17,497 bases of DNA, taken from a virus. The stretch lies in the UHGV virus genome UHGV-0117027. One strand, given 5' to 3'. Position numbers and translations under genes: made by a program. The notes beneath the pieces were generated by a model. The model worked only from the letters and a program-made list of their open reading frames with translations, was not told where the DNA came from and searched no databases. Shown one piece after another: positions 2,444-15,423 of the stretch. Positions within the stretch are counted from its first letter, which is position 1. Each line of letters starts with the position of its first letter.

Positions 2444-2458
2444 ATCCGGGCTTTTTTT
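2434..2458. terminator. hairpin terminator, candidate bidirectional, between convergent genes
   Basis: GCCCGG (2435-2440), loop TAGAT, CCGGGC (2446-2451), flanked by A-run (2431-2434) and T-run (2452-2458); the chaperone stop TAG lies in the loop and the minus-strand gene ends at 2457. Confidence 0.7.
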
Positions 2459-2954
2459 AATAACCTATATAATATTCGTGGTGTTTATCTATTACTTTTT
2501 TATACATGTTAGCGCCTTCTTTGACGCACATGTTTTTGAAGTCAATTCTTACCCTATCTAATGCCATCCCGTCGGCAGCGGCATAAGCGTTATTGTCGTG
2601 ATCTTTTATCGCCCGTTCAGCAGCCATGATGGCAAGTCCAGCGACAAAGTTTTTAAATTCATTATCATTTTGTTTGTTTTCAGCAGCAGCCATCACGAAA
2701 GCGAAACTTTCACCGTGCGCTTTTATCATTTCAGCGTCACCTTTTTTGGTCCTGCTATCTTTATTTAAGATGAAATACTCCCAGTTAACGCCGTGCCTAC
2801 CAATTGAAAAAAAGTTTACATTTGCCATTGTATATGCTTTTTCGTAGGCTGGATAAATAGCGTCGCACATCTTGCTGACTTCATTACTTGCATTTGCATT
2901 GACCGCGAATATTGCCATGACCGCAGCTACCGCGACTTTTACTAGCCGTTTCAT
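2457..2954 (-). CDS. secreted protein of unknown function (N-terminal signal peptide)
   Basis: 165-aa ORF opposite to the tail genes; N-terminus MKRLVKVAVAAVMAIFAVNANA-SNE is a classic Sec signal peptide with an AxA site; SD GAGG 7 nt upstream of the ATG. Confidence 0.7.
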   Translation of the reverse strand: MKRLVKVAVAAVMAIFAVNANASNEVSKMCDAIYPAYEKAYTMANVNFFSIGRHGVNWEYFILNKDSRTKKGDAEMIKAHGESFAFVMAAAENKQNDNEFKNFVAGLAIMAAERAIKDHDNNAYAAADGMALDRVRIDFKNMCVKEGANMYKKVIDKHHEYYIGY

Positions 2955-2966
2955 AACCCGCCTCGA

Positions 2967-3056
2967 TTAATTTTTGTTTTTAAGTGCTTTTAACATTTCT
3001 TCTATGAAGTCCGCATAGCGTTCATGTTCGTTGGGACGATAGTTTACGTTTTTCAT
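2967..3056 (-). CDS. small ORF (29 aa), first gene of the leftward cassette
   Basis: ATG at 3056 preceded by AGAGGA SD with 7-nt spacer; encodes MKNVNYRPNEHERYADFIEEMLKALKNKN; stop 12 nt before the secreted-protein start. Too short for composition-based support. Confidence 0.3.
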   Translation of the reverse strand: MKNVNYRPNEHERYADFIEEMLKALKNKN

Positions 3057-3133
3057 TTTCTTATCCTCTTTTGCTTCCTCCGGTTTATCCGGTCCTTTCA
3101 AACCCCTTTGCTCTATCCCTTTCCTTTAGTCTC

Positions 3134-3162
3134 TTTATACAAAATGGAGTCGTTATAGTAAA
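3134..3162 (-). promoter_or_regulatory. candidate sigma70-type promoter for the leftward cassette
   Basis: Minus strand reads TTTACT (+ coords 3157-3162), 17-bp spacer, TATAAA (+ coords 3134-3139). By-eye match only. Confidence 0.3.
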
Positions 3163-3163
3163 G

Positions 3164-3202
3164 ACATTTTGTATAAAATAGATACACAGATCACAAAAGT
3201 GG
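3164..3202 (+). promoter_or_regulatory. conserved bipartite element upstream of the tape-measure gene
   Basis: ACATTTTGTATA (3164-3175), 8 bp, ACACAGATCACAAAA (3184-3198) then GTGGAG (SD). The same 12-mer and 15-mer recur exactly at 15342-15353 and 15367-15381. Confidence 0.5.
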
Positions 3203-3212
3203 AGTAACAATC

Positions 3213-5426
3213 ATGACAACAAATGTGGGCACGATTGAGTATACCGTTGACGCAAAAACCGAGCGGTTACTAGTAGCTCAACGCAAGGCGGAGGACTCGT
3301 TTGATAAAATCGAGCAAGGCGCTAAACGCACCGATAAATCAGTGCAGTCACTTAATACCACGATAAGTAATTTATCCAAAGCCGTGAACATTGGAATGAT
3401 GGTCATGGCTGCAAAAAAATTCCTGGAGATCGCAGATAACGTAAATCTGCTACGCGCCAGGGTAACACGACTATCAAGCGGCATTGCTGACGCAAAATCG
3501 AATTTTGACGGGATTGTTCAGATATCGAATCGCACAGGGATGAGTGTTCAAAGCACCGGGAAGCTGTGGGAAAGCCTAAAAGCCAGCCTACAGGATACCA
3601 GCGCGACCAGTCAGCAGGTATTGCAGCTTACCGACTCGCTTCAGAAAATAGGCCGTATCGGAGGTAGCTCATCAGATGAAATGTCAAACGCACTTCGCCA
3701 GTTAGGGCAGTCCCTGACGGGTGGCATTGTTCGCGCGGAAGAATACAACTCTGTGCTTGAAAACATGCCCGAAGTATGGCGACGCGTCGCCAAACAAATG
3801 GGGATCTCGATGGGTGAACTTCGCGCAAGAATGCTTGATGGTAAGCTCACCGCCGAGGATGTTACCAATTCAATTCTTGCTGGCGCAGAAGACATAGAGA
3901 AGGACTTCGCAAAACTGCCAACAACAACAGATCAGGCATTTAACGAGCTAAAAAACAACTTCGATCTGTTAATTGACACGCTAAACCAAACGCTTGGAGT
4001 GTCTGATTTGGTAGTTACTGGTATACAGGCTGTTTCTAGTGAAGTCCAGATGTTATCTGGTTGGTTTAAGTCCCTGGCGAGCGATAGCACGTCATTAACT
4101 GATAAATTGTGGCTATTGGCTGGGGCGTTTGAGGGTATAGTGCCTGGGCTTAGTTTGTTCCGCGCTCAAGCGAAACAGGTTGGATGGTTTGATGGCGGAG
4201 AACAGCCATTTGTTTCCACTCTCCCCACGGGGCAAGCTGGTGTAAGTCGCATAACGTTTAAGCCTCAACCTGGTGGTAAGGGTAAGAAAGGCAAAGGTAA
4301 AAAAACCGGCAAATCAGAAGCCGAGCGCCTTGCGGAACAGGGTGTGCGCATTTCAGATGCATATAACGAAGATTCGGCAGCAATGCGCAAAGCGCTTGAA
4401 TCACAAAAAGCCATAGATGCAGCCTTTAAAGCCGGGAAAATAACCATGCTTGAATACAAAGGCGCAATGAAGGGAATTGGTGATGAATTGCGCGAAACTC
4501 TGGCGGAAATTAACGACCCGATCAATAGGCTGCAAGAAAAATGGGACAAAATGATTCCATCACTGGATCAGAAGCGCGGTGAACTAGACCCAATACAGCA
4601 GGCGCAAAATGAATGGACCGTTCGTAAGCAAATGCTGGAAGATCTTGGCGCTACTGAGCAATATATGAGGGAACAAGAAAGAGCGCACGCACAGGAAATG
4701 CTCACCCTTGAGTGGGAGCGATATAAAGCACAGTCAATGAGCTACAAACTGTTGGGCGATACCGTTGATGCAATGGGCGGATCTGCAACAAATGCGCTTG
4801 TGGGCCTGGTTAACGGCACTCAAAGCTGGCAGCAGGCGCTGGCTAACATTGGCAATACAATCCTTTCCTCCGTTATCGGTACGCTTGTTCAAATGGGGGC
4901 TGAATGGGTCAAGCAGCAATTGATAGGCGAGGCCGCCAGCGCAGCCGCAACAGCTAAAGCATTGGCAGAGGCTACCGCTTTGGGATCTGCGTGGGCTACT
5001 CCTGCATACCTGGCAAACGTAGCCACGATGGGCGGCGCGGCGACCGTGGGGGGTACGAGTCTTGCCACTGGTGTGGCTGGAGCAAAAGCGCTTGGCCTGG
5101 CTGGCGCTCGTTATAACGGCGGTGCGGTGGCTGCGGGCAGCCTCTATAAGGTCGGCGAACACGGTAAACCGGAGATCTTTCAGGCGAGCAATGGGAGTCA
5201 GTACATGATCCCGGGTGACAACGGCAGGGTAATACCAAATCGCGACATTGGTGGTGCTGGTGGTGGTAGCGTTAGCATAAACGCGCCGATTAGTGTTTAC
5301 CCACAAAATGGATGGAGCGATGAGGATGCCAAAAAGCTGCAACAGGACATGGAAAGGATCTGCATGGGCCTGATGCACCGCGAATCATCCAGACCAGGCG
5401 GAATGCTGCAACCTCGCAGGAAATAA
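3213..5426 (+). CDS. tail tape measure protein
   Basis: 737-aa ORF after the chaperone; helical N-terminal two-thirds, a Lys/Gly-rich stretch (KPQPGGKGKKGKGKKTGK) and a Gly/Ala-rich C-terminal region; SD GGAG 9 nt upstream of the ATG. Confidence 0.9.
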   Translation: MTTNVGTIEYTVDAKTERLLVAQRKAEDSFDKIEQGAKRTDKSVQSLNTTISNLSKAVNIGMMVMAAKKFLEIADNVNLLRARVTRLSSGIADAKSNFDGIVQISNRTGMSVQSTGKLWESLKASLQDTSATSQQVLQLTDSLQKIGRIGGSSSDEMSNALRQLGQSLTGGIVRAEEYNSVLENMPEVWRRVAKQMGISMGELRARMLDGKLTAEDVTNSILAGAEDIEKDFAKLPTTTDQAFNELKNNFDLLIDTLNQTLGVSDLVVTGIQAVSSEVQMLSGWFKSLASDSTSLTDKLWLLAGAFEGIVPGLSLFRAQAKQVGWFDGGEQPFVSTLPTGQAGVSRITFKPQPGGKGKKGKGKKTGKSEAERLAEQGVRISDAYNEDSAAMRKALESQKAIDAAFKAGKITMLEYKGAMKGIGDELRETLAEINDPINRLQEKWDKMIPSLDQKRGELDPIQQAQNEWTVRKQMLEDLGATEQYMREQERAHAQEMLTLEWERYKAQSMSYKLLGDTVDAMGGSATNALVGLVNGTQSWQQALANIGNTILSSVIGTLVQMGAEWVKQQLIGEAASAAATAKALAEATALGSAWATPAYLANVATMGGAATVGGTSLATGVAGAKALGLAGARYNGGAVAAGSLYKVGEHGKPEIFQASNGSQYMIPGDNGRVIPNRDIGGAGGGSVSINAPISVYPQNGWSDEDAKKLQQDMERICMGLMHRESSRPGGMLQPRRK

Positions 5427-5432
5427 ACAAAA

Positions 5433-5460
5433 CCCCGGCACAATGCCGGGGCTATTTTAT
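5433..5460. terminator. hairpin terminator, candidate bidirectional, between convergent genes
   Basis: CCCCGGC (5433-5439), loop ACAAT, GCCGGGG (5445-5451), then TATTTTAT; on the other strand the hairpin is followed by TTTTGTTTATTT. The minus-strand 59-aa gene ends at 5457. Confidence 0.7.
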
Positions 5461-5636
5461 TCAATTTCATCATTTTTAAATTCGCCGTTTGCATAAAGCT
5501 GCAATGCTCTTATCAGTTCGTCAGCTTGCTTTTTGTCTATTACAATCATCTCGCAGTCGCTAACGATCCATAATCTTCCGTCATCTTCAATACTAAGATC
5601 AATCCTTCTGCATTCTTCAGTATCATGAATAATCAT
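5457..5636 (-). CDS. small protein (59 aa), unknown function
   Basis: ATG at 5636 with GAAGG SD 7 nt upstream; hand-translated as MIIHDTEECRRIDLSIEDDGRLWIVSDCEMIVIDKKQADELIRALQLYANGEFKNDEIE; last gene of a four-gene leftward operon. Confidence 0.5.
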   Translation of the reverse strand: MIIHDTEECRRIDLSIEDDGRLWIVSDCEMIVIDKKQADELIRALQLYANGEFKNDEIE

Positions 5637-5674
5637 TATAAACCTTCATCATGTTATTGATTTCGTGAATAAAT

Positions 5675-5845
5675 TTACTCAAATCTTGTATATCCTCTCT
5701 CAATTTTCCCTCCGTGTACACTTCTGGCAAATACCGCGTCAGTACACCTAAAAAATGGGCATGTATATGTATCCCCTTTACTATCCATATATTTTAGCAC
5801 CCATGCCATGCGTTTTACGTTGCTTTTATTTGCCGGATTTTTCAT
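5675..5845 (-). CDS. small protein (56 aa), unknown function
   Basis: Internal ATG at 5845 with GGAGG SD (8-nt spacer), preferred over the TTG start of the 64-aa track ORF; MKNPANKSNVKRMAWVLKYMDSKGDTYTCPFFRC... Confidence 0.45.
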   Translation of the reverse strand: MKNPANKSNVKRMAWVLKYMDSKGDTYTCPFFRCTDAVFARSVHGGKIERGYTRFE

Positions 5846-5876
5846 TTTGTTTTCCTCCGCAACATTCAAATCCGTG

Positions 5877-6131
5877 TCACTTGTGAGCGCCTTTCACCCC
5901 ACAGTGCCTGTTATATTCCAGGTGGTCAATAATTAACCACATCTTTAAATCTTCGCTGAATAACCGCCAATCGGGGTTGATGTCAAATTTATAACCGTAG
6001 CCATCGCGTAATTTTTTGGGGTTGGCCTCTTTTTTAAGAAAAGCATCAAGCAATTGCTTTCCTTTCTTGATGATCCGGTCCTGTGCGTTTTTCTGTGCTT
6101 TCAGGTTTTTACCAATCGCCACCAATTTCAT
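5877..6131 (-). CDS. small basic protein (84 aa); RelE/YafQ-like toxin fold is a weak by-eye candidate
   Basis: ATG at 6131 (track ORF starts at an upstream GTG). Lys-rich N-terminal half, then NPDWRLF strand, MWLIID strand and C-terminal EYNRH; recalled YafQ/RelE-type toxins share the PDW...strand...basic/His C-terminus pattern. Not verified by alignment. Confidence 0.5.
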   Translation of the reverse strand: MKLVAIGKNLKAQKNAQDRIIKKGKQLLDAFLKKEANPKKLRDGYGYKFDINPDWRLFSEDLKMWLIIDHLEYNRHCGVKGAHK

Positions 6132-6149
6132 AACACACCCCACAATCCA

Positions 6150-6305
6150 TTAGTTGACCACTTTCAGGAAGAAATCACGGTACTCGTTTTCCTTCGCATT
6201 CATCATGAATTGACCGTATTTGAATGCGTCATCAAAGCCTTTGACTATCGCCACTTCCACCTGTTCGAATGCGTTGTTCAGCATTACCACTACATAACGC
6301 TTCAT
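6150..6305 (-). CDS. small protein (51 aa), first gene of cassette
   Basis: ATG at 6305 preceded by AAAGGAGG SD (5-nt spacer); hand-translated as MKRYVVVMLNNAFEQVEVAIVKGFDDAFKYGQFMMNAKENEYRDFFLKVVN; stop 18 nt before the 84-aa gene start. Confidence 0.5.
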   Translation of the reverse strand: MKRYVVVMLNNAFEQVEVAIVKGFDDAFKYGQFMMNAKENEYRDFFLKVVN

Positions 6306-6346
6306 ATTGGCCTCCTTTGTCGGTACTGCTTTTTCTTCTTGCTTAC

Positions 6347-6375
6347 TATATACATCTTGTCACGCCTTATGTGAA
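6347..6375 (-). promoter_or_regulatory. candidate sigma70-type promoter for the four-gene leftward cassette
   Basis: Minus strand reads TTCACA (+ coords 6370-6375), 17-bp spacer, TATATA (+ coords 6347-6352), about 40 nt upstream of the first cassette start codon. Confidence 0.35.
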
Positions 6376-6390
6376 GCCATTTTGTAAACT
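6376..6390. promoter_or_regulatory. conserved intergenic element GCCATTTTGTAAACT
   Basis: 14 of 15 identical to GCCATTTTGTTAACT at 7972-7986; both sit at the head of a leftward cassette and contain the ACAAAATGG core on the minus strand. Confidence 0.45.
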
Positions 6391-6474
6391 GGTTATAATT
6401 CTTGTGATGAATTTCTCATTTTTCGCGTAGAAGCGCGTAAAGATGTATGCAATATGTAACTTATAGGGGGAATC

Positions 6475-6828
6475 ATGCCAGAAGTTTTCAGATGGACGCC
6501 GCAAAGAAGCTACAGCGTGACCAGGGAACCAAATGTGTCTGTCGTTAAACTTGGTGATGGTTATGAACAGCGCCAGGCGAAAGGGATTAACACGTTGCTT
6601 GATAGTTATACCCTGGTTTTCAAAGGCAGTAGCGCGGGATGTGGTGATGGTGGAAACGTGGCGATCCAGGCCGAAGCATTTTTGAGGGCGCGCGGCGCTG
6701 TCGAGGCGTTTTACTGGACTCCATCGATCGACGGGGTGCAAAGGCTTTTCGTTTGCCGTAGCTGGAGCATGACCAAAGACGGGCCTGTGTACACGCTAAA
6801 CGCAACGTTTGAACAAGTTGTTGGCTAA
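6475..6828 (+). CDS. M: minor tail protein M homologue (distal tail protein)
   Basis: 117 aa; N-terminal FRW...V..V.LGDGYEQR and C-terminal ...FEQVV match the lambda gpM pattern as recalled (FRW...FGDGYSQR...EFEQVV); GGGGGA SD upstream. Confidence 0.9.
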   Translation: MPEVFRWTPQRSYSVTREPNVSVVKLGDGYEQRQAKGINTLLDSYTLVFKGSSAGCGDGGNVAIQAEAFLRARGAVEAFYWTPSIDGVQRLFVCRSWSMTKDGPVYTLNATFEQVVG

Positions 6829-6840: not shown

Positions 6841-6981
6841 ATGTACGGGACTTGTGTGGTTGACAAAACTTACGCTTTTACATTGTTTGACGACTATGAG
6901 ATCAACGACCTTACTGTAAAAGCTGACAACGGCGATATATGGTATCTTCACGACGTTGGCGATGGGTACGTGGGGGTGTAG
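6841..6981 (+). CDS. small ORF (46 aa) downstream of M, unknown
   Basis: ATG 6841 preceded by GGGGGG SD (5-nt spacer), 13 nt after the M stop; MYGTCVVDKTYAFTLFDDYEINDLTVKADNGDIWYLHDVGDGYVGV; below the ORF-track length cutoff. Confidence 0.3.
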   Translation: MYGTCVVDKTYAFTLFDDYEINDLTVKADNGDIWYLHDVGDGYVGV

Positions 6982-7033
6982 ATCCCGGGAAGGGAAGGGG
7001 GTTTTATTTTTGGTTGATGGCGTATAAACACGA

Positions 7034-7061
7034 CCCCGCGCGAAGCGGGGTTATTATTATT
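7034..7061. terminator. GC hairpin with T-tract (candidate terminator, possibly bidirectional)
   Basis: CCCCGC (7034-7039), loop GCGAA, GCGGGG (7045-7050), then TTATTATTATT; the minus-strand cassette ends at 7057 inside the T-tract. Confidence 0.5.
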
Positions 7062-7173
7062 CCATTTCCATTAATGCTATATTTTCCGCTATCGTTTTCC
7101 AGTCCAGATCTACAGCATGAACGCCAAATACTATCAATCCCATTATTATTAGCGCCAAAACTTCTATTTTCAT
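7057..7173 (-). CDS. small hydrophobic peptide (38 aa), predicted single-pass membrane peptide
   Basis: ATG at 7173 with AGGTG SD (7-nt spacer); hand-translated as MKIEVLALIIMGLIVFGVHAVDLDWKTIAENIALMEME; the hydrophobic stretch LALIIMGLIVFGV would span a membrane. Confidence 0.4.
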   Translation of the reverse strand: MKIEVLALIIMGLIVFGVHAVDLDWKTIAENIALMEME

Positions 7174-7183
7174 AATCTGTCAC

Positions 7184-7432
7184 CTATAAGTTATCACGCA
7201 GATAATTAACGCCCTTATCAGTGACGAATGAATGGTTAACCTGGTTTTCATCCGTCATGATGATAAATAACTTTTCCTGTAGGTATTTAGCTTTCGGGTA
7301 CAGCGTTAAACAGACCTGGTACAGTATCCCGCGCTCAATCAGCAAATCAATAAATTCGTGTTCATGATAACCAACGAGGCGGGCGGCCTGTTTCAGCGTG
7401 TACACATAATCGCCGTGATTGCGCCGCCCCAT
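7184..7432 (-). CDS. small protein (82 aa) with helix-turn-helix-like segment, putative DNA-binding
   Basis: Start at 7432 overlaps an AGGGGG SD placed on the upstream gene stop; segment TLKQAARLVGYHEHEFIDLLIERGIL resembles an HTH. Family not identified. Confidence 0.55.
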   Translation of the reverse strand: MGRRNHGDYVYTLKQAARLVGYHEHEFIDLLIERGILYQVCLTLYPKAKYLQEKLFIIMTDENQVNHSFVTDKGVNYLRDNL

Positions 7433-7441
7433 GTATCCCCC

Positions 7442-7789
7442 TTATTTATCGAATGCTGCAAGATTATCCATGCAGAAGTCTTTCGCAGCTTTTTCGTATT
7501 CGCGTTTTGCTTCTGGATCGTCAGCCGGGAAACCTTTTGCGTGTATTTCACCAGGGCAAGACTGATCCATAGAGTCTGCAAAATTAACATTGAAGTTAAC
7601 ATTAATATCTTTCGGGTTCATATCTTCCACCTCATCAACTATCTGTACCGGATTAGCAGCATATTTCACTGGATGGCCTAAACTACATTCAAGAATCCTG
7701 CCTTCTTCCAGGGCTACTTCTTCGCTATCAAATAATCCGAAACACTCCTTGCTACCACTTAACCACACATCAAGACTGTATTTTTTCAT
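7442..7789 (-). CDS. acidic protein (115 aa), unknown function
   Basis: Internal ATG at 7789 (MKKYSLDVWLSGSKE...) with GAGG SD, preferred over the longer 149-aa track ORF whose 5' part overlaps the upstream gene in another frame. Confidence 0.55.
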   Translation of the reverse strand: MKKYSLDVWLSGSKECFGLFDSEEVALEEGRILECSLGHPVKYAANPVQIVDEVEDMNPKDINVNFNVNFADSMDQSCPGEIHAKGFPADDPEAKREYEKAAKDFCMDNLAAFDK

Positions 7790-7958
7790 TTTTGTTAGCC
7801 TCATATTTGACAGGTTCGATCTGGTATCCCAAAAGGCGGTCATCCTCAGCAAGTAAAAGCGCGTCAACCAATGCTTCCCCCTCGTCGTCATACAGGGCGA
7901 TAACCTTTTCCCTACCGTCTGTCATGAATACCGTCAACTTCCATGGCTTTTCAGTCAT
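7770..7958 (-). CDS. small acidic protein (62 aa; alternative in-frame start at 7976 gives 68 aa)
   Basis: ATG 7958 with GGAGG SD (6-nt spacer); the in-frame ATG at 7976 also has an AAGGGGAAG SD and lies inside the conserved ACAAAATGG element. Overlaps the next gene by 20 nt. Confidence 0.5.
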   Translation of the reverse strand: MTEKPWKLTVFMTDGREKVIALYDDEGEALVDALLLAEDDRLLGYQIEPVKYEANKNEKIQS

Positions 7959-7971
7959 AACGCACCTCCGC

Positions 7972-7986
7972 GCCATTTTGTTAACT
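7972..7986. promoter_or_regulatory. conserved intergenic element GCCATTTTGTTAACT
   Basis: Near-identical to 6376-6390; a related CCATTTTGG lies at 8035-8043 and an oppositely oriented ATCACAAAATG at 8064-8074. Confidence 0.45.
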
Positions 7987-8792: not shown

Positions 8793-8794
8793 TC

Positions 8795-9999: not shown

Positions 10000-10013
10000 C
10001 AGGAGAATTAACC

Positions 10014-13000
10014 ATGAGTAGCGGCGGCGGCAAAGCAAAAACACCAACATTAATAAATGATAACCTTTATCACAAACAGTTTTATCGTGTGCTGGATATT
10101 ATTTCGGAAGGCCCGATTTATGGCCCTGTCAATACCAGTGCGCCATTAAATAGCGTAATGCTTAATGACACGCCTGTAACTGACGCGAACGGTAATACCA
10201 GCATCCCAGGCGTTAGCGTGGCGTGGCGTAATGGTACGTTAGATCAATCACCGATTAACGGTTTTAATGCCATCGAATCCACGGTAATGGTTAACGCACA
10301 GGTGAAACACGACACGCCGCTGGTAAGGACCGTATCAGATCCGAACGTGACGCGAGTCCGGTTAAATATTGGTGTGGATTCACTGGTGGAAAGCGATAGC
10401 CAATCAAACCAGAAAGAAACATCTGTCATTATGGCGATCGACGTTAAACCGTCCTCATCCTCAACATGGTCGTCTATTAAGGCCGTGCAAATAGGTCCAG
10501 GTAAAATCAGCGGAGAATACCTTGAAGCGCATATTATTGATGCGCCAGATGAAAAGCCGTTTGATATTCGCGTTCGCCGCGTAACCGCTGATAGCACAGG
10601 TGATCTATTGCAGAATGATACGCGGTGGAGTAGCTACAGCGAAATAATCGACGATAATTTGTCTTATCCTCACACTGCTGTAGCAGGCGCGGTAATTGAT
10701 CACGATCAGTATACTGACACACCTACACGCACTTATCACCTGCGTGGGCTTATTGTTGACGTGCCTGATAACTACGACCCGGAAACGCGCACTTATTCCG
10801 GTTTATGGCTTGGCGGCTTTAAACAGGCTTACACTAATAACCCTGCGTGGATCTTTCGTTACCTGGTTAAAAACGAGCGTTTCGGCCTTGCCCGCCATGC
10901 TGGTTATATCGACGTTGACGACGGCGCATTATACACACTTTCCCAATACTGCGACCAGTTGGTCGATGATGGTTACGGTGGCCTTGAGCCTCGCGTGACG
11001 CTTAATGCGTACATAACAGAGCAAATGAGCGCCCGCGATTTGCTGGACAATATCGCCGGGATGTTCCGTGGCATCGCGTTATGGGACGGGCAACGTCTTA
11101 CCGTAATGATTGATGCACCGCAAGATCCAATCGCCACCATTACGAATGCAAACGTCGTTGATGGCGCGTTCACTCGTTCGAGTATCGCCCGTGCGGAATG
11201 CTACAACGCCGTGATCGTATCCTGGACTGACCCGGAAAACGGGTGGGAGCAGTCAAAAGAGTATGTAGCAGATGATGAGCTAATCGCCCGCGATGGTTAC
11301 AACGAAACCACGATGGAGGCGTTCGGCTGTACGTCACGCGGGCAAGCGTACCGCGCGGGCAAATGGCTGATAGAAACAGCAAAACGCGAGCCGTCAAAAT
11401 TCACGTTTAAAATGGCACGTGACGCGATTCACTTTACGCCAGGGGATATAGTCGAAATCCTCGACAATAACCGCGCAGGTGCGCGTTTAGGTGGGCGTAT
11501 CGTGGCGAACAATGGAAACGTGATAACGGTCGATAAGGTTGACAGCGACTATATCACAGCAGGCGACACCATCAGCTTACTCGACAGCGACGGCAAATTT
11601 AAAAAACATCAGATTACTGGTGTAAACGGAAACGAAATCACACTAGCGGCGGCCCCGGCATGGATTCGGAACGGTACTGTATTTGCTGTATCCACCGAAG
11701 CGGAAAAACCCGTTTTATGCCGGATCACCAGTGTAGCCGAAACCGAAAATAATAGCGTGTATACCATCGAAGCAGCGCAACATGACCCGAACAAACAAGC
11801 GGTAGTCGATGAAGGCGCGATATTTGAAATCAACAACGACACGCTTAATCACTTCCGTGTCCCGAACATTGAAAACCTGAAAGTGGTAAACATCGGATCT
11901 GAAACAGTTCAATGCCGAGCTACATGGGAAACACAGACAACCACGCATCGCATGACATTCGAGATCCGCATATACAATACTGATGGTGCGGTGGTTAAAA
12001 GCTACGAAACAACGAAATACAGTTATGATTTTTATGGTATTGACGCTGGCGCGTATTCGTTAGGCGTTCGCGGAAGAAACGATACTGGCATGAAAGGCGC
12101 TGAAAGCATTGTTGATCTTGTTATTGGTGCTCCAGCCGCGCCAGTTGGCGTAAATTGGGTTCCAGGCGTATTTCAGGCGACCGTGTACCCGATAAGCAAA
12201 ACCACGCTTACTACCGATACGTCATATGAATTCTACTATGCAGGGGAAAATCAGATCACAGATCCGGCAAAAATAACCACGTCGGCACAGTTTACCGGGC
12301 GCGGGTATCAGTGGACGTTCGGCGGCATGAATACGGGCCATACTTATTACGTTTATGTGCGCACTCGTAATGCTTTTGGTGTGTCTGATTTCGTCGAGGC
12401 ATCAGGTAAGCCAACAGAGGATTTTGACGAAATCACTGATTACGTTACAAAGGATGTAATGGAATCAGAGCAATTCAAGGAGATGATTAGCGACATTAAA
12501 GATCTTGGTGAGCGCACTGATATTGTAGAAGGAGCTACCGAAGACCTTAAAATAGCTACAGAGGATCTTAAAGCTGACACAGATACACTTAAAAAAGACA
12601 CCGAAGACCTTTATAAAAAAGTCGAAGAAAACGCCGATGAAATAGGCAAACATGAGGTAAGAATAGACTCATTAGAGGTATCAAACGAAAACGTTAACAA
12701 CGAACTGGCACAGGCAAAAGCAAGTTTACAAAACGCTTCGCTTGCTCTGATCAATAACTCGCTTGCTCAAACTAACACGCGGGTTACTCTTACCGCTCAA
12801 TATAAGAAAGGTCGCAACGAAACAAAGGCACAGATTGACCGCATCGACAACGTTATCGCAGAGGAGAAAAAAGCGACAGCGGAATCACTGGAAACCATCA
12901 CAGCCGAAATAAATACGATAGACTCAAACATCAAAGGAGAAATAGCCCGCGTAGACAAAGCAATCGCAACCGAAACGCAGGCGAGAACGGAAGCTATAAG

Positions 13001-14066
13001 CAACGTTAACGCCAGTATCAGCAGCCTGGAAAACAAAACTGATGCGAGCGTTTCTCGTCTCGATCAAGCTATCGCTGACGAATCAAGCGCCCGCGCTCAG
13101 GCAATATCAGGAATCAGTGCGGAGCTTGGTCTTGTTGAAAATGAGGTTGATAAAAACAGCAACGAAATAGATCAGGCAAAAGCAAGTCTGCAAAACGCCT
13201 CGATTGCACTTATCAACAACTCAATAGCGCAAAGCAAGATGAGCACCGTTATTGAGGCGAAGTACAGGAAAGGCCAGACAAAAACAAAAGCGGAAATAGC
13301 AAGGATCGACACAGCAATAGCAGACGAAACCCAGGCCCGCGCGGAGGCTATAGCATCACTTGAAGCCAATATTAATGAAAACATTTCAGCAAAAATAACA
13401 GATATATCAACGGCGCTCGCAACTCACGAGGCATCAAGTGCTGAAAAATTTGTTCAAATATCGGCATCTTTCGACGATGTAAACTCAAGTATCACGGAAT
13501 GGTCACAGGCCATGACAACGACTGACGAGGCATTATCAACCAAAATTGACCAGTTAAAAGTAACTATTGACGGGAACACAACAGCCATAGAGACGACATC
13601 GAAAGCGTTAACGGACTTTAAGGGGAATGTCGATGCATCATACTCTATTAAGATCGCGACAGACAGCAGAGGCGTTAAATATGCTACCGGCATGTCGCTC
13701 GGCCTTACTGGTAGCGGGACTAATGTCCAATCGCAGTGTATTTTCCTCGTTGATCGCTTCGTGTTAATGACCGCCGCAAACGGCACATATACAACGCCTT
13801 TCTATGTCACTGGCGGCGCAATGTATGTACGTGAAGCGTTTATTAAGGACGCATCAATCACTAACGCGAAAATAGGTTCTTACATCCAATCAAATAACTA
13901 TGTTTCCGGCAGCACAGGCTGGAAACTTGATAAATCCGGTACATTCGAAAACTACGGATCAGTAAGCGGTGAAGGAGCAATGAAATGGACGAACACAACT
14001 ATCTCAGTAAAAGATGGTAATGGCGTGTTACGCGTCCAGATTGGGCGAATTACCGGATCATGGTAG
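10014..14066 (+). CDS. J: host specificity / central tail fibre protein J homologue with extended coiled-coil stalk
   Basis: 1350-aa ORF directly after I with AGGAG SD; large N-terminal tail-tip region, a heptad-rich repetitive stalk (about aa 800-1200) and a beta-rich C-terminal domain; position and size match lambda J. Confidence 0.9.
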   Translation: MSSGGGKAKTPTLINDNLYHKQFYRVLDIISEGPIYGPVNTSAPLNSVMLNDTPVTDANGNTSIPGVSVAWRNGTLDQSPINGFNAIESTVMVNAQVKHDTPLVRTVSDPNVTRVRLNIGVDSLVESDSQSNQKETSVIMAIDVKPSSSSTWSSIKAVQIGPGKISGEYLEAHIIDAPDEKPFDIRVRRVTADSTGDLLQNDTRWSSYSEIIDDNLSYPHTAVAGAVIDHDQYTDTPTRTYHLRGLIVDVPDNYDPETRTYSGLWLGGFKQAYTNNPAWIFRYLVKNERFGLARHAGYIDVDDGALYTLSQYCDQLVDDGYGGLEPRVTLNAYITEQMSARDLLDNIAGMFRGIALWDGQRLTVMIDAPQDPIATITNANVVDGAFTRSSIARAECYNAVIVSWTDPENGWEQSKEYVADDELIARDGYNETTMEAFGCTSRGQAYRAGKWLIETAKREPSKFTFKMARDAIHFTPGDIVEILDNNRAGARLGGRIVANNGNVITVDKVDSDYITAGDTISLLDSDGKFKKHQITGVNGNEITLAAAPAWIRNGTVFAVSTEAEKPVLCRITSVAETENNSVYTIEAAQHDPNKQAVVDEGAIFEINNDTLNHFRVPNIENLKVVNIGSETVQCRATWETQTTTHRMTFEIRIYNTDGAVVKSYETTKYSYDFYGIDAGAYSLGVRGRNDTGMKGAESIVDLVIGAPAAPVGVNWVPGVFQATVYPISKTTLTTDTSYEFYYAGENQITDPAKITTSAQFTGRGYQWTFGGMNTGHTYYVYVRTRNAFGVSDFVEASGKPTEDFDEITDYVTKDVMESEQFKEMISDIKDLGERTDIVEGATEDLKIATEDLKADTDTLKKDTEDLYKKVEENADEIGKHEVRIDSLEVSNENVNNELAQAKASLQNASLALINNSLAQTNTRVTLTAQYKKGRNETKAQIDRIDNVIAEEKKATAESLETITAEINTIDSNIKGEIARVDKAIATETQARTEAISNVNASISSLENKTDASVSRLDQAIADESSARAQAISGISAELGLVENEVDKNSNEIDQAKASLQNASIALINNSIAQSKMSTVIEAKYRKGQTKTKAEIARIDTAIADETQARAEAIASLEANINENISAKITDISTALATHEASSAEKFVQISASFDDVNSSITEWSQAMTTTDEALSTKIDQLKVTIDGNTTAIETTSKALTDFKGNVDASYSIKIATDSRGVKYATGMSLGLTGSGTNVQSQCIFLVDRFVLMTAANGTYTTPFYVTGGAMYVREAFIKDASITNAKIGSYIQSNNYVSGSTGWKLDKSGTFENYGSVSGEGAMKWTNTTISVKDGNGVLRVQIGRITGSW
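12711..13634 (+). repeat. in-frame tandem duplication (period 462 nt = 154 codons) inside J
   Basis: CAGGCAAAAGCAAGT...CAAAACGC at 12711 recurs at 13173; protein QAKASLQNASLALINNSLAQ versus QAKASLQNASIALINNSIAQ; shorter R[IVL]D-x-[AV]IA-x-E..AR.EAI units occur at least four times. Confidence 0.6.
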
Positions 14067-14072
14067 AATTAA

Positions 14073-14102
14073 GAGGCCGACTTGTTCGGCCTCAGTTTTA
14101 TT
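14073..14102 (+). terminator. rho-independent terminator / attenuator after J
   Basis: GAGGCCG (14073-14079), loop ACTTGTT, CGGCCTC (14087-14093), then AGTTTTATT; the SD of the next gene (GGAGG 14105-14109) follows immediately. Confidence 0.6.
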
Positions 14103-14116
14103 ATGGAGGTGTAACT

Positions 14117-14428
14117 ATGGATACTTTCGGCGTGGCAACATGGGACGCCAACGGCAACGCTAATAACTACGGCATCAAGCCATCCGTCGTGGTTGGCTAT
14201 ATTTCCTTGTCTTCCGGGCAAGTGTCAGGCACATATAATTTTACCGTTCCTACAGGATGTAAATTATCTTATGCCATGACGCTTGATTATGGCACAACAT
14301 CATCAACGCGTAGAAAGATCAGTATTTCCGGCGGTACTGTTTCCATTTCCTCAGCAGGGGATACGGTGGGCGCTAATATATGGCCCGCATCGCAATGTGA
14401 ACTGGTTATTTTTACGGAGAACGCATAA
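14117..14428 (+). CDS. small beta-rich protein (103 aa), tail-associated, unknown function
   Basis: ATG 14117 with GGAGG SD (7-nt spacer); stop TAA abuts the next ATG (TAAATG); N-terminus MDTFGVATWDANGNANN resembles that of the following gene. Confidence 0.55.
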   Translation: MDTFGVATWDANGNANNYGIKPSVVVGYISLSSGQVSGTYNFTVPTGCKLSYAMTLDYGTTSSTRRKISISGGTVSISSAGDTVGANIWPASQCELVIFTENA

Positions 14429-15028
14429 ATGGCTACTTTCGGCGCTTATTTACGTTTAAGTAATGGCAATATTTTCGTAACTCCAGATTCGACACCTATG
14501 TGCCTTTATTCACGGGTTGCTCTCAATTCAAGCCAACAGCAAACAATAGCCGTCCCCAATGGGAAGCCTGTAATGGTATTCATAAAAAACACAGACGATA
14601 CCGCTACTGGTGTAGCCTATCGCAATTCATCGTCTACCATAGTGATTCCACCAGGAAACGGTTACGCGTATATATTCAGTATCTTCCCGCAATCGCGTCC
14701 GAAGTGGGGTATGGCTATATGGAACGCTTCCGGTGAACTGGTATTGACAAACGAATCAAGAATATTGACAGACATTGTTACGGTGGGGACAGCCGGATCA
14801 AGTGGTGGAATTTATATCGACCAGACATTATCAGGATCTTATGCGGTAGTGCCTCAGATATTAGGGGCCGTTGTAGGTATGGGTTCTGCGACAATATATA
14901 CAGAGGCATACTACAACGGCAGCACTACACGAATTCGCGGGAAGATGGTTGGTAGCTTGCAACAGATTTACGGTTACATTAATCACGGGAACGCTATCAC
15001 CGCCATTAAAACCGACGCCTATGATTAA
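14429..15028 (+). CDS. beta-rich protein (199 aa), paralogue-like partner of the upstream gene, unknown function
   Basis: Translationally coupled to the upstream gene; N-terminus MATFGAYLRLSNGN...; Ser/Thr/Gly/Asn-rich like fibre or adhesin domains. Confidence 0.6.
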   Translation: MATFGAYLRLSNGNIFVTPDSTPMCLYSRVALNSSQQQTIAVPNGKPVMVFIKNTDDTATGVAYRNSSSTIVIPPGNGYAYIFSIFPQSRPKWGMAIWNASGELVLTNESRILTDIVTVGTAGSSGGIYIDQTLSGSYAVVPQILGAVVGMGSATIYTEAYYNGSTTRIRGKMVGSLQQIYGYINHGNAITAIKTDAYD

Positions 15029-15264
15029 TTCAGTTCCGGGCAATCCGTTTTCTTGAAGTGGTCAACGCTTACCCATTGGAAGTTAAACGGATACCCGGCC
15101 TTAACCATTTTATGACCGCCAACATCCGCGACACCGAAGACTGCAACCGCATATTCATTACCGCCAGCCTGATAAATTGCCGTGCATTCACGTTTCGGCA
15201 TATCAGCACAACCAACCATACCAGCGACCATTGCAGCTATAGCGATATTTTTAAAGCCTTTCAT
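15025..15264 (-). CDS. small lipoprotein (79-aa precursor), candidate Cor/Llp-type superinfection exclusion protein
   Basis: ATG at 15264 with GGAGGA SD (7-nt spacer), preferred over the far-upstream track start at 15408; MKGFKNIAIAAMVAGMVG-C: signal peptide plus lipobox-like Cys, mature part about 60 aa with two more Cys. Divergent from the tail-fibre gene. Confidence 0.6.
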   Translation of the reverse strand: MKGFKNIAIAAMVAGMVGCADMPKRECTAIYQAGGNEYAVAVFGVADVGGHKMVKAGYPFNFQWVSVDHFKKTDCPELN

Positions 15265-15341
15265 TGTCTTATCCTCCATTGTTCCGTCGGTTGTAGTATC
15301 CATAAACATCGTTTTCTCAACATTGATATAAATCAATAAAT

Positions 15342-15384
15342 ACATTTTGTATAGGTCAGGAATGTAACACAGATCACAAAATGG
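15342..15384 (+). promoter_or_regulatory. conserved bipartite element upstream of the tail-fibre gene
   Basis: ACATTTTGTATA (15342-15353), 13 bp, ACACAGATCACAAAA (15367-15381) then TGG; exact copies of the two blocks at 3164-3175 and 3184-3198. Confidence 0.5.
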
Positions 15385-15423
15385 TAAAATTACCAGGTTA
15401 ATTAACATAATGGAGTCATTGCG

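Follow-up and report, generated by a model that had tools for sequence, protein, structure and literature searches.

The DNA analysed here (the window, 17,497 nucleotides of the virus genome UHGV-0117027) represents the tail module of a temperate siphophage of the mEpimmI type (mEp021-like) that is integrated in E. coli. The mEpimmI relatives show 83-88% nucleotide identity to the window across the common parts. As listed in Table 1, 11-12 minus-strand genes lie within the tail module and are spread over four gene boundaries, or slots: chaperone/TMP (slot 1), TMP/M (slot 2), M/L (slot 3), and post-J genes/fibre (slot 4), where TMP is the tape measure protein. Each slot holds from one to four or five small opposite-strand genes. 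The four interruptions of the tail operon described in the initial annotation are thus all present where it had placed them. The annotations of relatives agree on the minus-strand genes, whether made by PGAP (four E. coli genomes), by PHANOTATE (mEp013), manually (mEp021), or by the ENA gene caller. In seven annotations taken together, antisense genes number about 69, compared with 12 non-structural genes in sense orientation. The phage encodes a Q-like antiterminator, and outside the cassettes the genes of the 40-kb rightward arm are all on the plus strand. Gene annotation and Pfam searches revealed no integrase or transposase among the window genes.

Table 1. Genes and regulatory features of the tail module, with positions in the window.
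Feature	Position	Strand	Basis
DUF6246 tail-assembly-chaperone-position gene, slot 1 left flank	1766-2443	+	PGAP name, identical M15 prophage
T1, two-way intrinsic terminator, AAAAAGCCCGG-TAGAT-CCGGGCTTTTTTT	2428-2458	both	folding
C1, secreted 165-aa protein, signal peptide MKRLVKVAVAAVMAIFAVNANA, variable slot-1 cargo	2457-2954	-	
28-aa leader-like ORF (MKNVNYRPNEHERYADFIEEMLKALKNK), RBS GAGGATAAG, cassette 1 first gene	2970-3056	-	
Divergent regulatory region 5′ of TMP	3057-3212		sequence motifs, conservation
Tape measure protein (TMP)	3213-5426	+	
T2, two-way terminator	5431-5453	both	dG -16.3 and -20.1
C2a, 59 aa, variable cargo	5457-5636	-	phrog_13627
C2b, 56 aa, variable cargo; start re-set to ATG 5845, RBS GAGGAA	5675-5845	-	
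C2c, ParE-like toxin-family protein, 84 aa, near-core in clade	5877-6131	-	Pfam PF24732
C2d, 51 aa, cassette 2 first gene, candidate antitoxin partner	6150-6305	-	phrog_29810
Divergent regulatory region 5′ of M	6306-6474		σ70-like scores, conservation
Minor tail protein M	6475-6828	+	
Mdown, small sense ORF	6841-6981	+	phrog_3249
T3, two-way terminator	7032-7052	both	folding
38-aa hydrophobic peptide MKIEVLALIIMGLIVFGVHAVDLDWKTIAENIALMEME, cassette 3 last gene	7057-7173	-	
C3a, 82-aa KilAC/ANT-domain protein, near-core	7184-7432	-	Pfam PF03374
C3b, 115 aa	7442-7789	-	phrog_38567
C3c, 62 aa, RBS GGAGGTG	7770-7958	-	phrog_29559
Divergent regulatory region 5′ of L	7959-8087		σ70-like scores, motif, conservation
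L, K (C40 peptidase), I, J, contiguous	8088-14066	+	
Hairpin directly 3′ of J	14073-14093		dG -15.3
pJ1 (103 aa) and pJ2 (199 aa), sense genes	14117-15028	+	
cor, 79-aa exclusion lipoprotein (MKGFKNIAIAAMVAGMVGC...)	15025-15264	-	NCBIfam NF047972, phrog_1119
Divergent regulatory region between cor and fibre gene	15265-15423		motifs, conservation
Tail fibre / head-spike-fibre-domain protein, slot 4 right flank	15424-17220	+	

In slot 1, the DUF6246 gene is kept in 28-29 close relatives. The stop codons of the two convergent genes lie within reach of T1, which overlaps each of them (dG -19.7 on the plus strand and -17.0 on the minus strand). C1 has no match in Pfam, PHROG, NCBIfam, PADLOC, or PDB, and its homologues form only 6 clusters, exclusively in E. 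coli. Its AF2 model is a 4-helix structure (pLDDT 73) that gave no match in a fold search. The C1 body is common to 1/29 close relatives; the alternatives in this slot are at least seven different envelope proteins, every one of them a lipoprotein, a signal-peptide protein, or a TM protein. The TMP itself is mosaic, with two alleles of about 42% amino acid identity and a body common to only 2-7/33 relatives.

In slot 2, 25 of 27 distinct relatives have a hairpin equivalent to T2 with A- and T-rich flanks. In UMNK88, the annotation has a 171-nt gene where C2b lies. C2c matches the ParE-like Pfam family with E 5.9e-12 (45.9 bits; cutoff 24.4), and its homologues are confined to the phage clade of the window; its AF2 model (pLDDT 50.6) did not confirm the fold. 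C2d ends 18 nt upstream of this gene and both are co-conserved, while no antitoxin family match was found for C2d. In slot 3, the T3 hairpin is the same in relatives, with the loop inverted in some. Homologues of the 38-aa peptide are annotated in mEp013 (gene 96) and WCHEC025970. C3a scores 29.1 bits against PF03374 (cutoff 25.3), and the PGAP name is concordant.

In all close relatives, L and K are 2 nt apart, and I and J are separated by 10-17 nt. Pfam searches gave no match for pJ1 and pJ2. The C-terminus of J, pJ1, pJ2, and cor are inherited as one block, in which the Cor exclusion lipoprotein is linked to the receptor-binding tip of J. The cor product matches NF047972 with 52.7 bits (cutoff 31), and a 240-nt cor is annotated in relatives. 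The true start lies at 15264, with the RBS GGAGGA and the lipobox MVGC. The last cassette had initially been extended to 15408, but that end belongs to a non-coding N-terminal extension of cor, in which the variable sites per codon position are 11/11/7. The PGAP call for cor in M15 is over-extended.

Coding potential was assessed by counting variable sites at codon positions 1/2/3 across homologues; the control gene M gave 17/10/65. A third-position excess with a bias toward synonymous over nonsynonymous changes was found in nine minus-strand ORFs. The counts are 6/1/14 for the 28-aa ORF (44 synonymous vs 9 nonsynonymous changes), 14/8/25 for C2a, 5/9/23 for C2b, 21/18/64 for C2c (30 full-length homologues), 5/2/33 for C2d, 12/3/40 for C3a, 17/10/38 for C3b, and 2/2/22 for cor. 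A plus-strand ORF (6054-6374) overlapping the minus-strand genes gave 22/5/3, a pattern opposite to that of the minus frames. The coding status of C3c (10/7/10, with an internal stop in one homologue) is uncertain. These codon patterns show that most of the minus-strand cassette genes are coding. The ribosome-binding sites described initially are present, with strong RBSs such as AAGGAGG of C2d. The impression that the cassettes are AT-rich was only partly right. Their GC is 0.35-0.45 vs 0.42-0.52 for the structural genes, and a low GC3 (0.32-0.42) is limited to C1 (0.40), C2a (0.32), C2b, C3b (0.35), and cor, whereas the ParE-like gene, C2d, and the KilAC gene have a GC3 of 0.53-0.60, like M and L.

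The hairpins T1 (2428-2458), T2 (5431-5453), and T3 (7032-7052) have an A-tract on one side and a T-tract on the other and fold with dG of -16 to -20 kcal/mol, which none of 200 shuffles equalled. No hairpin was found at the convergent pJ2/cor junction, where the stop codons overlap (15025-15028). Thus, the initial count of bidirectional hairpins at three of the four junctions is correct. In these three slots the two-way terminators sit at the downstream (3′) side of the cassette. In every slot, the 5′ end of the cassette adjoins a 130-170-bp AT-rich divergent region that is conserved in the clade. Similar terminators also lie between plus-strand genes, after the tube gene and after J.

The promoter calls are consensus matches in AT-rich DNA; with this caveat, six of the top ten σ70-like scores in the window fall within three of the four divergent regions, which cover about 4% of the sequence, and the key promoter-like hexamers are kept in relatives. 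Together with the strong RBSs and the two-way terminators, these promoter-like sites are signals of autonomous units. Region 6306-6474 has a leftward TACAAAATGGC-TTCACA-17/19-TATATA/TATAGT and a rightward GTGAAG-17-TATAAT, both among the top 10 of 175,000 scored positions; the TATAAT and the CATTTTGTA core are kept in nearly all relatives. Region 7959-8087 has a leftward TTGTTC-17-TATATT and a rightward TTGTTA-18-TAAAAT, whose -10 boxes overlap, and a motif ACGCATATCACAAAA 15 nt 5′ of the L start codon. Region 3057-3212, with a core kept in 30/30 relatives, has an inverted repeat TATACAAAATGG-N16-ACATTTTGTATA (3136-3175) and a motif ACACAGATCACAAAA (3184-3198); its σ70-like matches are weak in both directions (cassette 1 promoter score about 5). 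It is a paralogue of region 15265-15423, which has the leftward candidates TTTACC-16-TACATT or TTGATT-17-AACGAT, a rightward extended -10 TGGTA(A/G)AAT, and the motifs CATTTTGTA and ACACAGATCACAAAA. The phage-wide intergenic motif CATTTTGTA marks the cassette promoter regions. At the leftward promoters predicted for cassettes 1 and 2, TACAAAATGG immediately precedes the -35 box, as it does at the strongest predicted early promoter (TTGACT-17-TATATT) beside the repressor gene.

Are these junctions true cargo sites? The contents of the slots change between relatives, while the flanks (terminator plus promoter module) stay. The slots are occupied in 28/28, 32/32, and 29/30 close relatives. Since close relatives hold the same four slots, the cassettes are not four recent insertions. 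The initial description as four insertions is wrong, as the mEpimmI clade as a whole has the four slots as an ancestral trait. In a distant Enterobacterales clade, TMP-M is empty in 28 loci and filled in 40, and M-L is empty in 18 and filled in 54 with 32 ORF families, while L-K is tight in 67/67. These junctions are therefore true hotspots, in agreement with the initial suggestion. The slots are mixed in content. The chaperone/TMP cargo (C1), the TMP-proximal half of cassette 2 (5457-5900, common to 7-16/33 relatives), and the J-tip/pJ1/pJ2/cor block (13900-15300, common to 3/33) are swapped and AT-rich, whereas 5900-6474 (31-33/33) and 7200-8087 (about 30/33) are near-core. The ParE-like/C2d and KilAC/C3b genes are near-core, clade-restricted and, apart from C3b, like structural genes in GC3, which suits genes with a role for the phage better than cargo that is exchanged. 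Relatives also carry as cargo CapR/T5orf172, DUF1883, VasI-like, and retropepsin-like proteins and an IS200-family (IS200/IS605) transposase. No cargo protein matched the PADLOC defence models.

The comparison with lambda holds, as M and L are 2-12 nt apart in lambda-type loci. In contrast, the idea that accessory genes sit at module ends failed: the HK97 record annotates the morons gp15 and gp22, a 'reverse moron' gp23, and terminators inside the tail cluster. The arrangement is best read as moron cargo slots of a known type, common to the whole mEpimmI group (mEp021, mEp013, mEp010, mEp044, mEp515, mEp554; MH706966, PP180001-5). This group is of the same lineage as the window and has the same four slots with minus-strand genes; the layout is already visible in the mEp021 GenBank record, and MH706966 already annotates two-way terminators. 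The individual slots carry different cargo: the window has C1, C2a/C2b, and the pJ1-pJ2-Cor block, while mEp021 has gp63, a zinc-ribbon protein, and DUF6453 (gp80) with Lpp, and mEp013 has a 436-aa CapR/T5orf172 protein. According to the available passages of PMC11893012, the group depends on N-like and Q-like antitermination, its variable genes are placed 'mainly in the regulation cluster', a KilAC-like protein is near-core, and Lpp/Cor-type lipoproteins exclude phages when expressed; these passages neither call the tail slots hotspots nor discuss antisense orientation. The same source identifies mEp021 gp80, encoded by a minus-strand post-J gene, as a virion structural protein by mass spectrometry. 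Thus, at least one antisense slot gene is made in lytic growth, and not all such genes are lysogeny cargo.

HK97, considered with HK022 as one comparison system for its morons, likewise has genes added within a lambda-like tail cluster, and these have terminators of their own (NC_002167, Juhala et al. 2000 annotation). These are single, mostly sense genes, including the moron gp22 and the 'reverse moron' gp23 between I and J, and TMP-M-L-K are contiguous, whereas the window has 11-12 genes, nearly all antisense, and uses the TMP/M and M/L slots too. HK97 gp15, an envelope protein that blocks DNA entry, lies between the chaperone and TMP genes as C1 does. C1 has no sequence similarity to it. 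The slot-1 cargo of the window's clade is always envelope-targeted. A role of gp15 in superinfection exclusion is reported (Cumby et al. 2012, as cited in PMC11364771). The cor gene resembles those of phi80, N15, T1, and HK022 (NF047972, phrog_1119) in family match, lipobox, length (about 79 aa), and location just downstream of J/host-range genes; unlike them, it is inherited in a block with the J C-terminus and two sense genes. C2c and C2d resemble type II ParE/RelE modules in the ParE_like Pfam domain above the gathering threshold, the size of about 84 aa, and the 51-aa co-conserved gene 18 nt upstream, but C2c represents a one-phage-clade subfamily at a tail module site, with shortened copies common.

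The cassettes may best be read as morons that lie in antisense orientation within a Q-antiterminated late operon, thus forming a 'noncontiguous operon', and that have σ70-like promoters in the divergent regions. The phi80 gene taiEcA, antisense in a Q-controlled late operon, is a defence gene expressed in the lysogen and lowered by Q (PMC11364771). Direct RNA-seq of the 80alpha tha/ith noncontiguous operons revealed overlapping transcripts and several such sites per genome (PMC11087260). The phi80 taiEcA/atiEcA and 80alpha systems were shown experimentally; each of them concerns one gene that is not among the tail genes but lies upstream of the packaging module or within the lysogeny module, unlike the four multi-gene cassettes inside the tail module here. 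It is probable, and the explanation that I favour, that fixed slots for exchangeable antisense cargo lie in a Q-antiterminated tail operon and that the cassettes are transcribed leftward. The tail genes would be read within a long rightward late transcript, which the Q-like antiterminator would let pass the internal terminators. Leftward transcription of each cassette would start at a σ70 promoter of its own within the divergent region and stop at the two-way terminator. With that promoter and this terminator, a cassette could be expressed in the lysogen, independently of late transcription, and make no RNA antisense to the tail gene upstream of it. Convergent late transcription after induction, antisense through the cassettes, may damp them; the TaiEcA protein level stays constant after induction (PMC11364771), so such a shut-off is not guaranteed. 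The variable cargo may serve lysogenic conversion or superinfection exclusion, and the phage itself may be what the near-core ParE-like and KilAC cassettes serve.

This last point leads to a doubtful alternative, in which the near-core C2d/ParE-like and C3c/C3b/KilAC genes are developmental genes of the phage rather than lysogeny-expressed cargo: regulators, anti-host factors, or assembly factors made in lytic growth, in a fixed, ancestral antisense placement, so that true cargo sites are limited to slots 1 and 4 and the distal part of slot 2. Their presence in nearly all of the 33 close relatives, their M- and L-like GC3, strong purifying selection, and the reported near-core KilAC protein and virion protein gp80 argue for it, as do the clade-restricted ParE-like homologues and an architecture kept in the most divergent member. 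However, one relative (L014) has an exact deletion of the whole M-L cassette with the flanks, region 7959-8087, and the tail genes intact; several prophages carry shortened ParE-like genes (47-61 aa); and the pairing of a ParE-family toxin with a small partner gene upstream is typical of an addiction/defence module, not of morphogenesis. It is unlikely that the tail region instead consists of four or five rightward units (to the chaperone gene; TMP; M; L-J-pJ; fibre) with their own promoters and terminators, the antisense cassettes merely filling inter-operon gaps without functional antisense interplay. Conserved rightward promoter-like elements precede M (TATAAT of GTGAAG-17-TATAAT), L (TTGTTA-18-TAAAAT), and the fibre gene (TGGTAGAAT), so the tail genes may not rely on read-through alone; strong rightward terminators follow the chaperone gene, TMP, and M; and a ACRCAGATCACAAAA element lies at a fixed distance 5′ of L (23/31 relatives) and the fibre gene (21/27). 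But ACRCAGATCACAAAA is absent at the other late-gene starts, and the terminators between plus-strand genes are as in read-through late operons. If the tail genes had constitutive σ70 promoters, the lysogen would express them unless these were repressed; a search 5′ of the tail genes found no sequence resembling a repressor operator. The encoded Q-type late regulator and the reported dependence of the group on Q-like antitermination also speak against separate units.

It is highly improbable that mobile DNA entered a lambda-like tail operon in four recent, independent insertions, and the comparative data have already largely refuted this. The AT-richness of C1, C2a, C2b, C3b, and cor and the IS or HNH elements that occupy these gaps in some relatives would be in its favour, but all four slots are occupied in all close relatives, the flanking module is conserved around varying contents, no terminal inverted repeats or flanking direct repeats of the cassettes were found, and the window lacks an integrase or transposase. 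It is scarcely credible that the ORFs on the minus strand arose by chance or are artefacts of annotation. Several of these ORFs are very short, at 28-62 aa, C3c has no third-position excess, and the M15 cor call is too long; against this stand the nine ORFs with third-position excess and the opposite pattern of the overlapping plus-strand ORF, the strong RBSs, the matches in Pfam, NCBIfam, and PHROG, and the same calls from five independent gene callers.

The plus strand of the window carries, in order, two unnamed genes, the tail terminator and tube genes, a DUF6246 gene at the chaperone position, the tape measure protein gene (TMP), M, L, K (a C40 peptidase), I, J, two further sense genes (pJ1 and pJ2) and the tail fibre gene. 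The initial annotation described minus-strand genes in four gaps of this series, and the ORF positions agree with exactly these four: C1 between chaperone and TMP (slot 1); C2a, C2b, a ParE-like gene and C2d between TMP and M (slot 2); a KilAC gene, C3b and C3c between M and L (slot 3); and cor between pJ2 and the fibre gene (slot 4). Five independent annotation pipelines called the same minus-strand genes across seven relatives. Antisense genes are nested between genes of the same operon in this layout, and the rest of the 40-kb rightward arm lies entirely on the plus strand.

Are the antisense ORFs truly coding? Variable alignment columns were counted per codon position (1/2/3) among close relatives. 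The counts were 6/1/14 for a 28-aa ORF, 14/8/25 for C2a, 21/18/64 for the ParE-like gene, 5/2/33 for C2d, 12/3/40 for the KilAC gene, 17/10/38 for C3b and 2/2/22 for cor, with 17/10/65 for M as the control gene. The coding status of C3c is doubtful (10/7/10). Two candidates were rejected as non-coding: the N-terminal extension that PGAP gives to cor (window 15265-15408; 11/11/7) and a plus-strand ORF antisense to the cassette genes (6054-6374; 22/5/3). The latter exemplifies the antisense artefacts chosen by a greedy longest-ORF caller. Since that caller picked non-coding antisense ORFs, strand tallies overstate the sense-strand cargo.

At 99.9% identity, the window matches a prophage of E. 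coli M15 integrated at dgcM/ydaM, whose record differs by an IS903B insertion before the fibre gene. In M15 (L002, 18025-18408 and 18520-19488), the IS separates cor from the fibre gene, whose 5′ end is lost; the M15 fibre match begins at residue 20, and the window has no IS903B. Identity to mEp013, mEp021, mEp515, mEp044, mEp554, mEp010 and MagusPhagus is 83-88% over the shared parts, which amount to 54-75% of the window; the unmatched parts are the cassettes, the TMP body and the J tip. All of these phages are members of the mEpimmI group, which was described in 2025 (PMC11893012). At least part of the window is matched in 1227 of 5426 complete genomes, and the phage group carrying these slots is common in human-gut E. 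coli. The 53.5-kb prophage (L127) also encodes a Dam-like methyltransferase (17718-18257). PGAP names the product of its gene at 32297-33667 "anti-CBASS protein Acb1 family protein", while the positional counterpart in mEp021 (gp52) is annotated as a portal protein; the Acb1 name is possibly a misleading automatic label.

To place the junctions in a wider context, 80 IMG/VR loci and 43 genome loci were fetched with the M protein as query, eleven anchor proteins were placed on them by tblastn, and the gaps were measured. In the close clade (M at least 85% identical; 32 loci), the gaps are 640-1275 bp for chaperone-TMP, 681-2330 bp for TMP-M and 1196-1888 bp for M-L, while L and K are always 2 bp apart and I and J 10-17 bp apart. 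The sole exception is one locus (L014) with an M-L gap of 125 bp, where the entire M-L cassette is gone between two TTGTTA microhomologies and the region upstream of L is kept. At TMP-M, 28 loci of the distant clade (M 60-72% identical; Enterobacter, Atlantibacter, Citrobacter, Erwinia, Pantoea, Yersinia and others) are empty and 40 filled; at M-L the corresponding counts are 18 and 54, and L-K is empty in 67 of 67. In lambda-type loci (M 35-47% identical), M adjoins L, and TMP and M are likewise adjacent. Thus, TMP-M and M-L are real hotspots of long standing, and the four-slot layout dates back to the ancestor of the mEpimmI clade. The hotspot architecture proposed in the initial annotation is borne out, but its four insertions are not, since the slots of the close clade are filled throughout apart from that one locus. 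Comparison of TMP-M and M-L for alternative cargo, which had also been proposed, found different fillings, including 32 ORF families (≥50 aa) at M-L in the distant clade.

At TMP-M and M-L, genes lie between genes that are adjacent in related phages, as in the Hendrix/Juhala sense of a moron. Cassettes 1-3 also have terminators of their own, in the form of two-way hairpins; cor has none. No terminal inverted repeats or flanking direct repeats turned up around any of the cassettes, and a transposon or integron origin was rejected on that ground. Neither the Rfam scan nor the tRNA scan gave a hit. Selfish elements exploit the same gaps as the cassettes. An IS200-family (IS200/IS605) transposase gene lies in TMP-M of locus L033 (8733-9242). 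HNH endonuclease genes lie between I and J in mEp021 (L126 11668-12234) and in L132, and one adjoins the ParE-like gene in L132 (the HNH coordinates in L132 are 6243-6755 and 1448-2014).

The hairpins closing cassettes 1-3 (T1-T3) have folding energies of -16 to -20 kcal/mol, and none of 200 shuffles folded equally well. A hairpin was looked for at the pJ2/cor junction and not found, which leaves two-way terminators at three of the four junctions, as had been claimed. Further hairpins follow the tube gene and J. The loop of T3 occurs in both orientations among relatives (GCGCGAAGC versus GCTTCGCGC; compared with L003 and L004), and this palindrome appears to have been flipped or exchanged.

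The cassettes are not uniform in conservation, as judged by the number of 33 close loci covering each part of the window. The C1 body is common to only one of 29 relatives. TMP (3213-5426) is a mosaic with two alleles of about 42% amino acid identity; the allele and body found in the window are common to 2-7 of 33 loci, and all relatives share just the first ~30 codons (~90 nt). The stretch 5457-5900 is common to 7-16 loci, 7000-7200 to 19-22, and 13900-15300 (J tip, pJ1, pJ2 and cor) to three. In contrast, 5900-6474 (the ParE-like gene, C2d and the promoter region) is common to 31-33 of 33, and 7200-8087 (KilAC, C3b, C3c and the promoter region) to about 30. Sharing breaks off at the terminators on one side and at the promoter region or 5′ ends on the other. 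The cassettes had been thought AT-rich, and their GC content is indeed 0.35-0.45 against 0.42-0.52 for the structural genes. At third codon positions, this holds for C1, C2a, C2b, C3b and cor (GC3 of 0.32-0.42) but fails for the ParE-like gene, C2d and KilAC, whose GC3 of 0.53-0.60 is like that of structural genes. The variable genes are those with low GC3; the near-core genes have a structural-gene-like GC3.

What do the slots carry? The cor product is predicted to be a Cor-family exclusion lipoprotein (NF047972, 52.7 bits against a cutoff of 31; phrog_1119, E 4e-22), with a lipoprotein signal peptide, MKGFKNIAIAAMVAGMVG, followed by the lipobox cysteine when read from the re-set start at 15264. 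Its inheritance together with the J tip fits what is expected of a receptor-matched exclusion gene. In relatives, slot 4 has DUF6453 and an Lpp lipoprotein in place of cor; Lpp proteins of mEpimmI phages were shown to exclude cognate phages (PMC11893012). Slot 1 encodes an envelope-targeted protein in every relative: two lipoprotein families (VasI-like and BamE-like), three signal-peptide proteins including C1, and small transmembrane proteins. Near-identical signal peptides (MKRLAKV...NANA or ...LVGC) are found on unrelated mature slot-1 proteins in the window and in four relatives (L006, L007, L010 and L017), and recombination may have occurred inside the signal-peptide coding region. Homologues of C1 form only six clusters, all from E. 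coli. Its AF2 model is a four-helix bundle (pLDDT 73) for which Foldseek returned no PDB match with E<0.8. C1 was rejected as a homologue of the HK97 moron protein gp15 by sequence, as BLASTP gave no alignment at E<=100; genomic position and envelope targeting alone are in common.

In slot 2, the ParE-like protein matches PF24732 (ParE_like; 45.9 bits against a cutoff of 24.4), and NCBI names its relatives "ParE family toxin-like protein". C2d (51 aa) is encoded on the same strand, 18 nt upstream of the ParE-like gene, and is co-conserved with it. This ParE-like subfamily was found in the mEpimmI clade only, and truncated copies occur. Its AF2 model has low confidence (pLDDT 50.6) and consists of a long helix followed by three or four strands, an order compatible with RelE/ParE; no PDB sequence matched. 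Cassette 3 comprises a KilAC/ANT-domain protein (PF03374, 29.1 bits against a cutoff of 25.3, profile positions 23-105 of 108), a 115-aa protein (C3b) and a 38-aa hydrophobic peptide. PDB sequence searches with C1, the ParE-like protein, C3b and KilAC gave nothing useful, and among all cargo proteins NCBIfam matched Cor alone. PADLOC profiles of known anti-phage defence systems matched none of the cargo proteins at better than E 0.007. Other slot contents in relatives include a 436-aa CapR/DUF4379/T5orf172 protein, DUF1883, a retropepsin-like protease, an IS200-family transposase and HNH endonucleases. The 436-aa protein is the product of mEp013 gene 88 (L001 6879-8189, minus strand, in the TMP-M slot); from its five DUF4379 treble-clef zinc-finger repeats, CapR-homology domains and C-terminal T5orf172, it is plausibly a conflict or defence protein.

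Divergent regions upstream of TMP, M, L and the fibre gene separate a leftward cassette from a rightward tail gene. When the whole window was scored on both strands with a σ70 position-weight matrix, six of the ten top scores fell inside three of these four regions; the region upstream of TMP scored weakly, including the cassette 1 site. Upstream of L, the -10 boxes of the two predicted promoters overlap. The predicted hexamers, which are consensus matches only, are kept across relatives while adjacent bases vary. The region upstream of TMP (3049-3212) is about 75% identical to that upstream of the fibre gene (15257-15423), and the paralogous stretch takes in the RBS and ATG with which the first minus-strand gene starts. 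This points to duplication of a cassette promoter module.

The 9-mer CATTTTGTA has 12 exact copies in the 53.5-kb prophage. Ten of them are intergenic, although intergenic sequence makes up 12.5% of the genome and a Markov-1 simulation expects 0.2 ± 0.45 intergenic copies. Of the 11 copies in mEp021, which occupy homologous positions, 10 are intergenic. Four copies are in cassette promoter regions, and others flank the repressor gene. At the strongest predicted early promoter, the motif is directly upstream of the -35 box (TACAAAATGGA-TTGACT-17-TATATT), and it abuts the -35 box at several predicted promoters (TACAAAATGG-[-35]-17-[-10]); cassettes 1 and 2 show the same order at their predicted leftward promoters, as does TMP at its predicted rightward promoter. 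I infer that CATTTTGTA is promoter-associated, either UP-like or a regulator half-site; if so, it would support real promoters at the cassette borders. It was rejected as a -10 box because the downstream hexamers have no conserved T at position 6.

A GATC-containing element, ACRCAGATCACAAAA, precedes the start of L by 15 nt in 23 of 31 relatives and that of the fibre gene by 42 nt in 21 of 27; upstream of TMP it was found (≤2 mismatches) in only 3 of 30. Neither ACACAGATCACAAAA nor ACRCAGATCACAAAA occurs elsewhere in the prophage or anywhere in the distant clade, and ACACAGATCACAAAA was therefore rejected as a general late-promoter element. To either side of the repressor gene (L127 11440-11560 and 12350-12395), the predicted early promoters are bracketed by inverted TGCRAGTCA-like half-sites, for example TTGACTCG-N22-CGAGTCAA around TTGACT-17-TATATT; these half-sites are candidate operators of the mEpimmI repressor. 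A search for the half-site found four against 7.2 expected, none of them in the divergent regions or tail cassettes; direct repressor control of the cassette promoters is thus unsupported.

Re-set gene models, terminators, predicted promoters and motif copies (window positions unless another locus is named)
Feature	Position	Strand	Remark
cor, re-set model	15025-15264	-	RBS GGAGGA; lipobox MVGC; 79 aa, against 127 aa by PGAP in M15
C2b, re-set start	5845	-	
Additional small ORF	2970-3056	-	28 aa
Additional small ORF, cassette 3	7057-7173	-	38-aa hydrophobic peptide
Hairpins closing cassettes 1-3	2428-2458, 5431-5453, 7032-7052		A-tracts upstream, T-tracts downstream
Predicted promoter upstream of M		leftward	TTCACA-19-TATAGT (or 17-TATATA); σ70 scan
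Predicted promoter upstream of M		rightward	GTGAAG-17-TATAAT; σ70 scan
Predicted promoter upstream of L		leftward	TTGTTC-17-TATATT; σ70 scan
Predicted promoter upstream of L		rightward	TTGTTA-18-TAAAAT; σ70 scan
Predicted promoter upstream of fibre gene		leftward	TTTACC-16-TACATT; σ70 scan
CATTTTGTA in cassette promoter regions	3138-3146(-), 3165-3173, 6378-6386, 15343-15351		
CATTTTGTA elsewhere in L127	4283, 11499, 12342, 13021, 16455, 19990		L127 positions
ACRCAGATCACAAAA sites	3184-3198, 8058-8072, 15367-15381		

How might the interrupted module be transcribed? The prophage has a gene for a Q-type late regulator (antiterminator), and mEpimmI phages reportedly depend on N-like and Q-like antitermination (PMC11893012). 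The most economical proposal is a noncontiguous operon. A single Q-modified late transcript would pass T1-T3 as well as the hairpins that follow the tube gene and J. Transcription of the leftward cassettes would begin at promoters of their own and be halted by the two-way terminators. The cassettes should then be expressed in the lysogen, and convergent late transcription should damp them. Three observations argue against reading the cassettes as cargo alone: the ParE-like and KilAC cassettes are near-core, the mEp021 virion protein gp80 is encoded on the minus strand, and rightward promoter-like elements are conserved before M, L and the fibre gene.

A more elaborate alternative, which I consider unlikely, takes the four slots as a coordinated docking system. 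Each slot would be framed by a two-way terminator on one side and a bidirectional promoter module with CATTTTGTA on the other, the TMP and fibre modules being paralogous copies. A factor acting at the motifs would switch the modules leftward (cassette, in lysogeny) or rightward (tail gene, in lysis), so that tail-gene and cargo expression would be reciprocally wired at four points, besides Q antitermination. The conserved frames would also serve as handles for cargo exchange by homologous recombination.

The noncontiguous operon has precedents, and antisense nesting in phage late operons already has a named mechanism. Such an arrangement was demonstrated experimentally for taiEcA in the Q operon of phi80 (PMC11364771) and for 80alpha (PMC11087260). 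In HK97, the annotation of morons inside the lambda-like tail cluster dates back to 2000 and includes one that is antisense, with terminators; the gp15 moron occupies the position of slot 1. The GenBank record of mEp021 (2018) has exactly the same layout and already shows the bidirectional terminators. In the retrieved passages of the mEpimmI paper (PMC11893012), I found no recognition of the four junctions as conserved cargo slots with conserved frames, and no mention of TMP-M and M-L as Enterobacterales-wide hotspots or of the shared promoter module and motif. Current concepts are unchanged by the finding. If the proposed reading is right, the tail slots bring prophage-borne envelope, exclusion and toxin genes together in a compact catalogue. 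New exclusion or defence genes could be sought at the TMP-M and M-L junctions throughout Enterobacterales, as has been done at P2/P4 hotspots, and the element would offer a natural system for testing antisense (noncontiguous-operon) control at several sites of a Q-antiterminated late operon.

Two repeats were found around J. The openings of pJ1 and pJ2 are near-identical over 16 nt (ATGGMTACTTTCGGCG; 14117-14132 versus 14429-14444). Inside J, a 74-nt repeat of 80% identity, spaced by 462 nt (12698-12771 versus 13160-13233), suggests an internal duplication in the distal part.
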